In this document: positions 4,504-14,740 of the stretch, piece after piece
Numbering within the stretch: position 1 is the first letter of the stretch
How the letters are laid out: every line of letters starts with the position of its first letter
IMG/VR virus record: IMGVR_UViG_2690315742_000009
Span: 1 to 16,435 of that record
DNA: 16,435 nucleotides
Reading direction: 5' to 3' (one strand)
Source of the DNA: a virus
Lineage: Duplodnaviria > Heunggongvirae > Uroviricota > Caudoviricetes
The notes under the pieces: model-generated
The model's input: the letters and a program-made list of their open reading frames with translations, nothing else
Told to the model about the DNA's origin: nothing
Database searches by the model: none
Program-made: the position numbers and the translations under genes

Positions 4504-4556
4504 AGGGCGGCAGAGCAGTCACGGAGTAAAACTGATACCGCCAAACGTCACCAGAA
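4504..4556 (-). ncRNA. dicF: DicF small RNA (53 nt)
   Basis: Minus strand reads TTTCTGGTGACGTTTGGCGGTATCAGTTTTACTCCGTGACTGCTCTGCCGCCC followed by TTTT, which matches the 53-nt E. coli DicF sequence as I recall it. Contains a GC-rich terminator stem (GGCGG...CCGCC) and sits between a ydfC-like ORF and dicB as in the Qin operon. Confidence 0.8.
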
Positions 4557-8982: not shown

Positions 8983-9726
8983 ATGGAGACTGTTTTTGAC
9001 GCACTGAAAGCGATGGGAAAAGCCACGTCGGTAGAGCTGGCTGCGCGACTTGATATCAGTCGTGAAGAAGTACTGAACGAGCTGTGGGAACTGAAAAAGG
9101 CTGGTTTTGTTGATAAAAGCGCGTACACCTGGCGTGTGGCTGATAACAACGTTCAGCAGGAACAGCCAGCGCCAGAAGAACAGCCGGAAGAAACCACCAC
9201 GGCGACAGTAGCGAAAATCTCAGAGTGCGATTTAACCGCGACGATTGAACAACGCGGACCACAAACGGCGGATGAACTGGCTACGCTGTTCGGTACAACA
9301 TCCCGCAAAGTGGCTTCAACGCTGGCAATGGCAATCAGCAAAGGTCGTCTGATTCGTGTTAATCAGAACGGTAAATTTCGTTACTGCATGCCGGGCGAGA
9401 ATTTACCAGCAGAGCCGAAAGCGGCATCGGTAGCGGAAACTGATGGTAAAGCCTTTCCTCAGCCTGCATGTGTTGCGTTACCAGTACAGGAAGCTGCAAC
9501 ACAGGAAGATATTAAAACAGAAACTGTGGCGGACATTGTGCAGCCGCTTGAGAAGCGAGTGGATAATCTGGTTCTGCCATCGCTGCGACAGGCAAACCGC
9601 GAACTGCGTCGGGCGAAAAGTGATATCAGGAAATGGGAGCGAGTCTGTGCCGCGCTGCGGGAGCTGAATAAATATCGCGATATTGTCGCCCAGCTTTGCC
9701 AGGAGGCAACCAGTGAGAAAAATTAA
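8983..9726 (+). CDS. Hypothetical protein with two winged-helix-like segments (DUF1627-like, from memory)
   Basis: GGGAGG 7 nt upstream of ATG. Acidic, Q/E/P-rich linker between two HTH-like stretches ([28 protein letters not shown]; [32 protein letters not shown]). Confidence 0.5.
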
Positions 9727-10282
9727 TTATCAGGCGCTACGTGAGATAGCAAAACAGGCAACACAAGGCGAATGGGTCGCATTTATTTCGCCGGGCAAAT
9801 ACGGCACGTACGCCGTGCACACGCCAGGAGATAATCATCACGGAGATATTGTCGACTGGCCTGGATTCGACGGACAGAAAAACGCAGAGAACAACGCTCG
9901 TTATATCGCAGCTTTCAACCCTGAAGTAGTGCAGGCGCTGCTGGATGAACGGGAAGCCCAAAGCAAACGCATTGCAGAACTGGAAGCTAATTTTGCGACG
10001 CTGGCAGTGGAGAATGTGGGGTTAAATAAATTCATTAAGGATGATTGCTTTATTTATACAAGCGATGACATCAGCCCACGCGATGCAAATGGATTCAAGC
10101 CTGAAACGCCAGCTACTGACGCTTTCCTGGTTGATATACAGGCGGTGGCGTTTAACGAGCTTCGCGCGGCGTTTGTCAGGCATGCAAAAGTTGCAGAACT
10201 GGATGATGCCGATACTGTAACGCTTAAGGAAGTGATGGATGCGCTGCTGCATTGTGTAGAACAGCTTCGCGCTCCAGAATAA
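9713..10282 (+). CDS. Ead/Ea22-like protein (189 aa from GTG)
   Basis: AGGAGG (9701-9706) 6 nt upstream of GTG at 9713; the track's TTG at 9683 is less likely. N-terminal motif [19 protein letters not shown] resembles the Ead/Ea22 family from memory. Overlaps the previous gene by 14 nt. Confidence 0.6.
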
Positions 10283-10377
10283 ATAAATTTATCACTGTAA
10301 ATAAAATTTAATCCTTAACCGGAGGGATTTCTACACCCTCAGAACAGCAGGAGGCCACCCGAAAGGGCGGTAGTGAA

Positions 10378-10560
10378 ATGCGAAAGTTCAAAGTAATTAT
10401 TGAAACTGGAATAGCTGGTGGAGATTTTGAGGATGTATTCGAAGTGGACGATGACGCAACACCTGATGAAATTCATGACGAAGCAAAAGAAATTTTCTTT
10501 AACTACTGCAATTACTCATATCACGAAATAAAAGACGAAGAGGAAGAACAAAATGGCTGA
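10378..10560 (+). CDS. Small highly acidic hypothetical protein (60 aa, 19 D/E against 5 K/R)
   Basis: ATG at 10378. An AGGAGG lies 24 nt upstream but is brought closer by a predicted GAAA-loop hairpin between SD and ATG. Stop overlaps the next ORF's start. Confidence 0.45.
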   Translation: MRKFKVIIETGIAGGDFEDVFEVDDDATPDEIHDEAKEIFFNYCNYSYHEIKDEEEEQNG

Positions 10561-10729
10561 TTTTGGTTCAACTAAATATAACGCCAGTTTTGAAGAATGG
10601 CATGAACTGTTAATGGACTATGCAGAGTTACGCGGTGGAAGTGCCGCCGATGCTGAAGCATGGCGTGATGACTATGAAGCAGGAAAAACTCCGGTCGAAG
10701 CATATTGTGATGAGTGGGGCTATGAATGA
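10553..10729 (+). CDS. Small acidic hypothetical protein (58 aa, 15 D/E against 4 K/R)
   Basis: Not in the supplied track (below 60 aa). ATG at 10553 with GAGGAAG upstream, overlapping the previous stop. Its TGA overlaps the next gene's ATG (ATGA). Sequence MADFGSTKYNASFEEWHELLMDYAELRGGSAADAEAWRDDYEAGKTPVEAYCDEWGYE. Confidence 0.45.
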   Translation: MADFGSTKYNASFEEWHELLMDYAELRGGSAADAEAWRDDYEAGKTPVEAYCDEWGYE

Positions 10730-11241
10730 GCGAGATTAATTATCAGGAAGGGCATGAAACGGCAGGGCAGGCAAAACCAGTTGCATGGCGATATCGCTAC
10801 GTGAAAAAAGGCGTTACGGACTTTCAGGAGAAGATGTGGGTTGGTGACTGGAAATATGTACCGACAAAAGAGGATTGCAACGACAGGCCGAGCTATGAGA
10901 TTCAGGCATTATTCACTACCCCGCCAGTCCCGGTGATATCAGAAGGACTGGTTAAAGCCGTGCGCTTTTATGAACAGGTAAAGCGTGAAAATCCGCCAGC
11001 CGAAACAGGAGCATGGAAAGACGCTGTTGACTGGGTGCTCAAAGAGGCCTGCTGTGCTGTCATTCTGGGTAAAGCCGACAATCCACTAGCATCCAGTAAT
11101 CAGGTTGGCGAATTAACAATGTGGGTTAAACGACTGGTCAGTCAACTGAAAAAAGCTAATCCAGACTGCAAATTACCGGAGATGGCGATGCATTACCTGA
11201 AACGAAATGGACTGATAAGCGTGGAGGATGTTTTACGATGA
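10726..11241 (+). CDS. Hypothetical protein (171 aa) with Ead/Ea22-like N-terminal motif
   Basis: ATG coupled to the upstream ORF (ATGA). N-terminus SEINYQEGHETAGQAKPVAW parallels the N-terminus of the 9713..10282 protein. Confidence 0.6.
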   Translation: MSEINYQEGHETAGQAKPVAWRYRYVKKGVTDFQEKMWVGDWKYVPTKEDCNDRPSYEIQALFTTPPVPVISEGLVKAVRFYEQVKRENPPAETGAWKDAVDWVLKEACCAVILGKADNPLASSNQVGELTMWVKRLVSQLKKANPDCKLPEMAMHYLKRNGLISVEDVLR

Positions 11242-11356: not shown

Positions 11357-11475
11357 TGCAGCGGGTGCTTGAGGCTATCTGTCTCAGGCATGAACACCAA
11401 AAGGCAGATAGAGAAAAGCCCCAGTTAACATTACGCGTCCTGCAAGACGCTTAACATTAATCTGAGGCCATATCT

Positions 11476-11535
11476 ATGCGACACATAGAGATTAGCCTCT
11501 TACGGACCGAAAGGTCAAGGAGAAGCAGGCTATGA
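11476..11535 (+). CDS. Short upstream reading frame coupled to hok (mok-like, 19 codons)
   Basis: ATG at 11476; its TGA overlaps the hok ATG (ATGA). Analogous to mok-dependent translational coupling in hok/sok loci, but much shorter than classical mok. Confidence 0.3.
   Translation: MRHIEISLLRTERSRRSRL
11489..11518 (-). promoter_or_regulatory. Candidate promoter for a Sok-like antisense RNA
   Basis: Minus strand TTGACC (plus 11513-11518), 18-nt spacer, TAATCT (plus 11489-11494). Predicted antisense start near 11482, reading across the start of the upstream coupled frame. Confidence 0.4.
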
Positions 11536-11687
11536 AGCAGCAAAAGGCGATGTTAATCGCCCTGATCGTCATCTGTTTAACCGTCATAGTGACGGCACTG
11601 GTAACGAGGAAAGACCTCTGCGAGGTACGAATCCGAACCGGCCAGACGGAGGTCGCTGTCTTCACAGCTTACGAACCTGAGGAGTAA
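11532..11687 (+). CDS. hokD: Hok/Gef-family type I toxin (51 aa)
   Basis: AAGGAG SD. Protein MKQQKAMLIALIVICLTVIVTALVTRKDLCEVRIRTGQTEVAVFTAYEPEE has a single transmembrane helix plus a conserved Cys-containing periplasmic tail, and matches my memory of HokD (RelF). Confidence 0.85.
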   Translation: MKQQKAMLIALIVICLTVIVTALVTRKDLCEVRIRTGQTEVAVFTAYEPEE

Positions 11688-14430: not shown

Positions 14431-14506
14431 GGCCCTTTAGCTCAGTGGTGAGAGCGAGCGACTCATAATCGCCAGGTCGCTGGTTCAAATCCAGCAAGGG
14501 CCACCA
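14431..14506 (+). tRNA. tRNA with CAU anticodon (Ile2-lysidine type or elongator Met)
   Basis: Hand-folded cloverleaf: acceptor GGCCCTT/AAGGGCC, D-stem GCTC/GAGC, anticodon loop CTCATAA, T-loop TTCAAAT, encoded CCA. Close to E. coli ileX as recalled. Confidence 0.8.
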
Positions 14507-14507
14507 G

Positions 14508-14584
14508 CCGCCACTAGCTCATCAGGAAAGAGCGTCAACCCTTTAAGTTGAGTGTGCGAGGTTCGAGTCCCCGGTGGCGGTCCA
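14508..14584 (+). tRNA. tRNA-like gene with unusual anticodon loop CCTTTAA (nominal anticodon UUU, Lys-type; C at position 33)
   Basis: Cloverleaf folds: acceptor CCGCCAC/GTGGCGG, D-stem GCTC/GAGC, perfect anticodon stem TCAAC/GTTGA, T-loop TTCGAGT, encoded CCA. T-stem has one A-C mismatch and position 33 is C, not the near-universal U. Confidence 0.55.
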
Positions 14585-14586
14585 GT

Positions 14587-14662
<76 letters not shown>

Positions 14663-14665
14663 TAT

Positions 14666-14740
<75 letters not shown>

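Follow-up and report, generated by a model that had tools for sequence, protein, structure and literature searches.

Known DNA mimics are elongated helical dimers or multi-domain rods: Ocr (T7 gp0.3) is an elongated all-helical dimer whose carboxylates trace the backbone of bent B-DNA, and ArdA has a three-domain fold of ~165 amino acids. In T7 Gp2, an inhibitor of RNA polymerase, a seven-residue negatively charged strip is required for inhibition, and R56 and R58 on the third strand bind the beta' jaw (PMC3778932). The small proteins encoded by the lambda exo-xis region (Orf60a, Orf63, Orf61, Ea8.5 and Ea22), whose functions are poorly understood, have been reported to influence lysogenisation and induction (PMC8614690). 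Two adjacent small genes, here called ORF1 and ORF2, lie on a 16,435-nt stretch of viral DNA (IMG/VR record IMGVR_UViG_2690315742_000009, hereafter the window) and were originally predicted to encode translationally coupled, highly acidic proteins that are candidate DNA mimics or other anti-defence factors.

The coordinates (10378–10729, + strand), lengths (60 and 58 amino acids) and translations given for the two ORFs in the original prediction are correct, and its charge counts were reproduced by script. ORF1 contains 19 D/E against 5 K/R (net charge -14, pI 4.06, -0.23 per residue) and ORF2 contains 15 D/E against 4 K/R (net charge -11, pI 4.08, -0.19 per residue). No other of the 23 products encoded in the window is nearly as acidic, the closest carrying a net charge of -0.07 per residue. 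The EEEE stretch that had been described as the C-terminal tail of ORF1 does lie near the C-terminus, but it is followed by QNG and is thus not terminal. A DNA mimic cannot be told from another kind of small protein binder by high acidity alone.

In both protein families, the acidity is conserved. The net charge lies between -11 and -18 in all 23 diverse members of the ORF1 family (DUF7167) that were compared, an acidic tail being usual among them, and between -4 and -15 in 31 of 31 members of the ORF2 family. Furthermore, ORF1 and ORF2 are genuine genes under strong purifying selection: using the unique intact alleles out of 32 ungapped relatives, we obtained a dN/dS (Nei-Gojobori) of 0.07 for ORF1 (16 alleles) and 0.095 for ORF2 (17 alleles).

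The window represents an E. coli lambda-like prophage of the Qin/Rac type. It starts with an integrase, the excisionase region and a large exonuclease, followed by the DicF RNA and a ydfABC-like region; repressor/cro, YdaT and the O- and P-type replication genes come next, and behind these lie a DUF1627 gene, an Ea22-like gene, ORF1, ORF2 and ORF3. The remainder of the window consists of hok/sok, DUF968, RusA, Q, four tRNAs, a holin and a lysozyme gene. The pair thus has the O/P replication genes upstream and the Q antiterminator downstream of it, with Ea22-like genes flanking it, and this gene order therefore assigns it to the non-essential, variable replication-to-Q stretch (Table 1). This location is an accessory stretch and not a takeover region of the T7 style.

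Table 1. Features of the two-gene cassette and its borders (positions within the window)
Feature	Position	Strand	Basis
Upstream Ead/Ea22-like gene, left border of the cassette	9683..10282	+	Pfam Ead_Ea22, E 2.8e-24
Conserved 95-nt leader, from the upstream Ea22-like gene to ORF1	10283..10377	+	Direct sequence reading
ORF1, 60 aa, ATG start, Pfam DUF7167 / PHROG 1997	10378..10560	+	Pfam and PHROG profile match
GAGGA, Shine-Dalgarno-like element for ORF2	10540..10544	+	Read from sequence; putative function
ORF2, 58 aa, PHROG 519	10553..10729	+	phrog_519, E 1.3e-22, residues 1–58
ORF3, 171 aa, mosaic, PHROG 660, variable right border of the cassette	10726..11241	+	phrog_660, E 2e-73

Since HicAB, ParE, Doc or kinase/phosphatase cargo occupies the same prophage position in other E. 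coli strains, this position is an accessory hotspot. The gene upstream of the cassette differs among relatives, and ORF3 is mosaic: residues 1–28, 1–100, 1–115 or the complete 1–171 are common to relatives, some of which have no ORF3 at all. The N-terminus of ORF3 (MSEINYQ) resembles that of lambda Ea22, although weakly (E 0.1). Amid these changing neighbours, the leader, ORF1 and ORF2 form a constant core. The same pair is found in the Stx phage ArgO145, where it is part of a leftward operon, in the exo-xis stretch that leads from the recombination genes to int, and is again adjoined by Ea22-like genes. Between the upstream Ea22-like gene and ORF1 of the window, no promoter or terminator signal above chance was detected. 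We expect ORF1 and ORF2 to be expressed as genes of the early rightward operon.

The leader, which co-travels with the pair in E. coli genomes, contains a strong Shine-Dalgarno sequence (AGGAGG, 10349–10354), followed by a GNRA hairpin (CCACCC-GAAA-GGGCGG, 10355–10370) according to RNA fold prediction and by 7 nt that separate the hairpin from the ATG of ORF1. Among 80 related loci, the commonest allele of the hairpin has a perfect CCGCCC/GGGCGG stem, and a compensatory CCACCC/GGGTGG stem is present in four. ORF1 and ORF2 overlap by 8 nt (ATGGCTGA, 10553–10560), and ORF2 and ORF3 by 4 nt (ATGA, 10726–10729). The geometry fits a translational coupling of ORF2 to ORF1, as a GAGGA element is located 8 nt upstream of the ORF2 start codon at 10553, within the EEEE codons of ORF1.

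Neither protein had been thought to have an assignable motif. This proved correct for ORF2 as far as Pfam and NCBIfam are concerned, in which no family matched; however, ORF1 is assigned to Pfam DUF7167 (PF23768) with 54.9 bits (cutoff 24.4; E 9.2e-15), its residues 2–53 aligning with model positions 1–60, and to PHROG 1997 (E 8e-31), and its relatives in RefSeq are annotated as 'DUF7167 family protein' (WP_001224685.1). AF2, supplied with 18 sequences, predicts a beta(2–9)-beta(16–23)-alpha(29–39)-beta(45–51) fold for ORF1 (pLDDT 77.7), behind which the acidic tail, DEEEEQNG, is modelled at lower confidence; the negative charges are laid out on an acidic face of the helix, in a DDD loop and in this tail. 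Residues I8, E9, T10, E22, I32, A36, F40 and C44 show no or almost no variation among DUF7167 members from E. coli, Klebsiella, Enterococcus and Pseudomonas phages, and ORF1 conforms to the family pattern of a stand-alone protein of ~55–62 amino acids with IET...FEV-DDAT-EEI...A...F-N-C and an acidic C-terminus. A search with the DUF7167 profile yielded 163 clusters. All 120 matches listed were short stand-alone proteins (36–99 amino acids) carrying no other precomputed Pfam domain, and there are thus no domain fusions among these listed matches.

DUF7167 proteins, which are typically ~57 amino acids long, occur in phages of Gram-negative and Gram-positive hosts. We found them in prophages of E. 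coli, Klebsiella, Citrobacter, Yersinia and Serratia. Plasmids nearly lack them (15 records). In Klebsiella Guernseyvirinae, the DUF7167 gene is located directly upstream of, and overlaps the start of, a gene for a 454-amino-acid exonuclease, similar to the arrangement in T7, in which gene 5.9 precedes gene 6; a Gp2.5-like SSB is also among the neighbours in Klebsiella phages. In Enterococcus Herelleviridae, the DUF7167 gene directly follows an annotated exonuclease, and in P22-like prophages the order is Arf-Erf-SSB-x-Dam-DUF7167-theta-x-xis-int, theta being a homologue of the pol III theta subunit. In 150-kb phages of E. coli and Pseudomonas, it lies within a TerC/SprT/TelA/.../TerF/TerD cluster. 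When one genome per species was scanned with a pattern, only seven loci were recovered, some of them in Firmicute prophages; the genes near the latter are presumably VRR-NUC and helicase genes, as judged from unscanned ORF translations read by eye. We therefore rejected the idea of a constant functional neighbour of DUF7167, the context being an exonuclease, Erf/SSB/Dam/theta, a Ter cluster or VRR-NUC/helicase.

ORF2 is related to a RefSeq 'hypothetical protein' (WP_000753054.1), and a homologue is labelled 'DUF5419' in one phage record, a label that a Pfam scan did not confirm. The AF2 prediction for ORF2 is a three-helix bundle (13–27, 34–42 and 47–55; pLDDT 70.9), in which the three helices are predicted to be amphipathic with acidic outer faces. 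Residues W16, L20, W37, Y41, G44 and P47 are conserved in the family, the consensus of which is FEEW...L...A...G.S..D..AWR.DY.AG.TP..A..DEW. When the ORF2 profile was compared to 1.84 billion cluster representatives, only 67 matched at E<=1e-3, nearly all of them stand-alone proteins of 50–65 amino acids. The PHROG 519 family includes Vi01_151c of Salmonella phage Vi01 and WP_000753050.1 of IncI2 plasmids, which both match the same profile region as ORF2.

We consider the distribution of the ORF2 family to be the most informative result of this analysis. The family is present in 216 phage records, which comprise lambdoid and Stx phages and many Salmonella, Klebsiella and Dickeya phages of ~150–160 kb, and on 560 plasmids, of which 516 are conjugative. 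In phage Vi01 (Ackermannviridae), the gene follows that for the major capsid protein. The copy on IncI2 plasmids is 89% identical to ORF2 and is embedded in the order CaiF/GrlA-type regulator - DUF1187 - ORF2-like - SPFH - NfeD - type IV secretion genes, the ATGGCTGA overlap with the upstream gene being retained. It heads the transfer operon and is ~15 kb away from the mobC/relaxase region, with replication and maintenance genes in between, so that a placement of this homologue in the leading region is unsupported. On a Klebsiella MOBH megaplasmid, a member of the family belongs to a long one-directional array of small uncharacterised genes, including DUF957, and on an Aeromonas plasmid it is likewise part of a long array of small uncharacterised genes. 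The DUF1187 gene that precedes the IncI2 homologue was considered as a diverged DUF7167 gene; this was rejected, given an hhalign probability of 0.1% and assignment to a different PHROG. An interpretation of the first 75 positions of the phrog_519 profile as DUF1187 was found to be wrong, and a single 127-amino-acid 'fusion' of DUF1187 and ORF2 is apparently due to a frameshift.

Within E. coli, the cassette is widespread: the 352-nt pair is present at a coverage of at least 80% in 1750 of the 5426 complete genomes (approximately one third), and the copy in APEC O1 is 100% identical, that in ATCC 25922 93.8%. ORF2 is located directly 3' of ORF1 in all of 80 close relatives on viral contigs. 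Nevertheless, the two are not obligate partners outside the enterobacterial lambdoids, as the lists of matches to the two families overlap little in host and type of element, and none of the four distant DUF7167 loci that we checked has an ORF2-like gene nearby. Moreover, the ORF1 family was not found in the phage groups that have ORF2 alone. This, together with the near absence of DUF7167 from plasmids, shows that the two families are independent of each other and are linked only in enterobacterial lambdoid phages.

Searches of Pfam, NCBIfam and PADLOC revealed no enzymatic or DNA-binding domain in ORF1 or ORF2, and no homology to a characterised non-defence family, the finding that had been named as a refutation of an anti-defence role, came to light. 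Neither family shows sequence kinship to solved structures, whether single sequences or family profiles are used, and no convincing fold match to Ocr, ArdA, T7 Gp2, the lambda exo-xis proteins or any solved structure was obtained. A match to the insertion domain of AnkX was dismissed as noise (16 bits compared to a cutoff of 27; PDB E 0.45–1.4). In the literature searched, we found no mention of DUF7167, DUF1187, the WP accessions or the peptide strings, and no experimental data on either protein.

We tentatively suggest, with somewhat less than even confidence, that ORF1 and ORF2 are acidic proteins that stoichiometrically bind or inhibit a nucleic-acid-binding protein of the host or of a rival element. 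The two are separately evolved small accessory proteins that have become fixed as a putatively coupled two-gene cassette in enterobacterial lambdoid prophages. The cassette occupies the Ea22-flanked variable part of an early operon, which follows the replication genes in the window and which, in some Stx phages, is the exo-xis portion of the pL operon; from this early-operon location, it should be made on infection or induction and not from the repressed prophage. Each product, predicted to be one small globular domain with a conserved and very high negative charge and lacking signatures of catalysis, metal binding or DNA binding, may bind stoichiometrically to a positively charged surface that otherwise engages nucleic acid, and binding would block or redirect the target in the manner of T7 Gp2 with its negatively charged strip. 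The targets of ORF1 and ORF2 are probably different, since most other elements have one family without the other, and the wide distribution of both argues for a general host target over a phage-specific step.

The original idea of a classical DNA mimic, whose acidic surface would imitate the phosphate backbone and fill the DNA groove of a defence enzyme that targets DNA, for instance a restriction or RecBCD-like enzyme, is a reasonable guess that our findings neither support nor refute, but as a specific claim it appears unlikely to us. The extreme and conserved charge density would suit it, as would the accessory hotspot, the presence of the ORF2 family on conjugative plasmids and in both temperate and virulent phages, the array of small genes around the homologue on the Klebsiella megaplasmid, and the DUF7167-exonuclease overlap of Guernseyvirinae with its parallel to T7 genes 5.9 and 6. 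However, a Pfam scan (E<=1) matched neither protein to the Ocr or ArdA family, no solved structure is related to them in sequence, and PADLOC, which models defence systems and has anti-defence proteins outside its scope, gave no match, so that neither resembles a known defence component. Structure prediction, which had been proposed as a check, speaks against the idea as well: AF2 returned compact domains of 58–60 amino acids, and not elongated dimers that trace DNA as Ocr does or multi-domain rods. A text look-up, as opposed to a sequence comparison, in 10 supplementary files accompanying EVADES, a catalogue of 268 anti-defence entries, retrieved neither 'DUF7167' nor 'PF23768', and the peptide strings of ORF1 and ORF2 are absent from the supplements of a large accessory-gene screen. 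The IncI2 homologue, finally, lies far from the relaxase region; its position behind a CaiF/GrlA-type regulator, where the transfer operon starts, hints at regulation over counter-defence. The reading of the pair as spurious ORFs or a toxin-antitoxin unit, for which one could invoke the very small size and overlap of the genes and the toxin-antitoxin modules found at the same locus in other strains, is essentially excluded: selection is strong, all alleles examined are intact, homologues are found in different phyla of phages, each family occurs on its own outside the enterobacterial lambdoids, and the products, acidic in both cases, have neither a toxin-like domain nor a DNA-binding antitoxin domain according to Pfam and PADLOC.

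The regulatory hint from the IncI2 position also speaks against the binder reading, as do the exonuclease, Erf/SSB/Dam/theta or VRR-NUC/helicase neighbours of DUF7167, which would suit a function in DNA metabolism of the element itself just as well. ORF1 and ORF2 would then be accessory subunits or modulators of replication or recombination, for example an acidic partner of a phage exonuclease, of an annealing protein or SSB, or of a replisome component, and the position of the pair behind the O/P genes of the window would agree with this. The exonuclease and Gp2.5-like SSB of the Klebsiella phages, the exonuclease in Enterococcus and the Arf-Erf-SSB-Dam and theta genes of P22-like prophages are such neighbours, in addition to the Erf-like or VRR-NUC and SNF2-type helicase genes that we believe, from reading translations by eye, to adjoin DUF7167 in other prophages. 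Yet these neighbours vary by lineage, with none constant and with a Ter-like cluster in the 150-kb phages; early replication modules also keep unrelated small accessory genes; and the ORF2 family is found behind the capsid gene of Vi01 and at the start of a plasmid transfer operon, all of which makes us regard such a role as improbable. We are more doubtful still about developmental or transcriptional modulators, which would tilt the decision between lysis and lysogeny like the lambda exo-xis proteins (Orf60a, Orf63, Orf61, Orf73, Ea22) or regulate plasmid transfer. The pair does lie amid Ea22-like genes, in ArgO145 even within the exo-xis stretch, whose small proteins are those reported to affect lysogenisation and induction (PMC8614690); on IncI2 plasmids, a CaiF/GrlA-family regulator precedes the homologue where the transfer operon begins; and a weak structural resemblance of ORF1 to the RNA polymerase inhibitor Gp2 would be in line with such a function. 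On the other hand, there is no sequence similarity to the lambda exo-xis proteins, the two invariant arginines of Gp2 have no counterpart in ORF1, and both families also occur in phages that are strictly virulent and take no decision on lysogeny.

To return to stoichiometric acidic binders, a more far-reaching version can be formulated, in which the ORF2 family would be a pan-mobile-element establishment factor, an acidic three-helix protein of 55 amino acids with which lambdoid prophages, Ackermannviridae and conjugative plasmids neutralise one widespread host DNA-binding defence or nucleoid protein, and DUF7167 would be an unrelated Gp2-like inhibitor whose negative strip plugs a DNA channel, in phages of both Gram-negative and Gram-positive hosts. 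The cassette would then be a two-inhibitor counter-defence unit in a third of E. coli genomes; we judge this version to be quite improbable.

Both genes have already been catalogued (Pfam DUF7167/PHROG 1997 and PHROG 519) and annotated thousands of times, and the objects themselves are therefore not new. What is new is the recognition of the fixed cassette, the independence of the two families, their family-wide acidity, their predicted folds, and the range of the ORF2 family across phages and conjugative plasmids. If either protein inhibits a host defence or a core DNA-binding protein, this would matter, given that about one third of complete E. coli genomes carry the cassette. Further reasons are that DUF7167 extends to Enterococcus and Pseudomonas phages, and the ORF2 family to hundreds of conjugative plasmids, including the IncI2 backbone. 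A study of IncI2 plasmids describes them as the commonest vector for the colistin-resistance gene mcr-1 (PMC8053102); with respect to the locus considered here, that study covers only the regulator neighbouring the ORF2 homologue. One small protein common to phages and plasmids would point to a shared barrier to DNA entry. At present, the value of ORF1 and ORF2 is that of well-defined and cheap candidates of 58–60 amino acids for an inhibitor screen, among very many conserved small uncharacterised proteins, and not that of a discovery.

Compared to the systems described at the outset, ORF1 and ORF2 share with Ocr and ArdA a similar negative charge density and carriage on mobile elements. They differ from Ocr in that neither is predicted to take the form of an elongated all-helical dimer with carboxylates following bent B-DNA, and from ArdA in being single-domain proteins about a third of its length. 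With the lambda exo-xis proteins they have in common a similar size, Ea22-like neighbours and location in an early operon; however, Orf60a and Orf61 are basic while ORF1 and ORF2 are strongly acidic. BLASTP comparison of ORF1 and ORF2 to the six lambda products yielded no match below E 0.2, and kinship to Orf60a (DUF1317), Orf63 (DUF1382), Orf61 or Ea8.5 was rejected accordingly. The structural resemblance of ORF1 to T7 Gp2 is weak, and no homology is detectable in sequence (hhalign probability 0.2%; pairwise BLASTP E 0.2). The third strand of ORF1 reads NYSYHEI, and no basic residue is conserved there in 23 DUF7167 members, in contrast to the arginine pair of Gp2. Given this and the low probability, ORF1 is not a member of the Gp2 family, and we rejected it as a homologue or functional orthologue. 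By family, ORF1 is an ordinary member of DUF7167/PHROG 1997, with the same length, invariant residues and acidic tail, and ORF2 shares the W-L-W-Y-G-P core of PHROG 519. By mechanism, T7 Gp2 is the best available analogy for how an ORF1-like protein could work.

The presence of a DicF RNA together with a complete hok/sok locus confirms that the prophage is Qin-like. The same window carries four tRNA genes, the first of which, called Met-CAT by ARAGORN, is annotated as tRNA-Ile in a RefSeq relative; this label probably reflects a CAT anticodon that is read as Ile once lysidine-modified.

Features located in the prophage, with scores or remarks where available
Feature	Position	Strand	Remarks
DicF antisense RNA	4505-4556	-	76.7 bits
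ORF1 Shine-Dalgarno (SD) sequence AGGAGG, strong	10349-10354	+	23 nt 5' of ATG
GNRA-loop hairpin	10355-10370	+	placed exactly between SD and ATG of ORF1
hok/sok type I toxin-antitoxin locus, complete	11363-11687	+	sok 106.7 bits; hok ORF 11532-11687
Four tRNA genes	14431-14740		between Q and holin; ARAGORN: Met-CAT, Lys-TTT, Thr-TGT, Gly-TCC

Despite their tight linkage, the two acidic genes differ in base composition (G+C of 36% for ORF1, 10378-10560, and 45% for ORF2, with 48–49% in the two flanking genes), which suggests that they also differ in origin. The downstream gene, ORF3 (10726-11241; 171 aa, PHROG 660), encodes a mosaic protein for which relatives show recombination break-points past residue ~28, 100 or 115. 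Since its N-terminus (MSEINYQ) is Ea22-like, the ORF1-ORF2 pair is bracketed by Ea22-like genes on both sides, and these may serve as recombination handles.

At the junction (10538-10560), the GAGGA ribosome-binding site of ORF2 comes from GAA GAG GAA GAA, the codons for the EEEE of ORF1, and the end of ORF1 (NG, then stop) is set by the ORF2 start, ATGGCTGA. An identical 8-nt overlap is retained upstream of the ORF2 homologue in IncI2 plasmids (L095 8793-9177), where the overlapping 5' gene is DUF1187, which is unrelated to ORF1.

Homologues of each gene were also seen in other elements. In phages of E. coli and Pseudomonas with genomes of ~150 kb (phiWec190, PsgM04F and metagenomic relatives; L090 1-8174, L093, L008, L104), the gene for DUF7167, the family of ORF1, lies within a phage-borne tellurite-resistance-like cluster, where TerC, SprT-like and TelA genes are accompanied by several small unknowns and by vWA-TerF-like and TerD genes. 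An ORF2 homologue is found, along with DUF957, DUF262, DUF4942 and DUF6012, in a ~30-kb stretch of the Klebsiella plasmid pRJA166a (151-181 kb; L106 11000-41000). This stretch of some 40 hypothetical genes, mostly small and mostly in one direction, is located between the mobI-traI-traD genes and repB, and could represent an island of accessory or anti-defence genes.

On E. coli O157:H7 chromosomes (hits H171-H174), some 84 nt of the leader of ORF1 (10295-10378) also occur alone, 93% identical, in intergenic DNA that bears no annotation. Because this part of the leader is present there without ORF1, we suggest that it is a shared boundary at which modules are exchanged. Most relatives have a perfect CCGCCC/GGGCGG stem in the leader hairpin, and four loci have a compensatory CCACCC/GGGTGG stem. 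Judged from sequence, the hairpin looks like a means by which the far-off SD would be drawn near the start codon. Such an arrangement is present in T4 genes 38 and 25.
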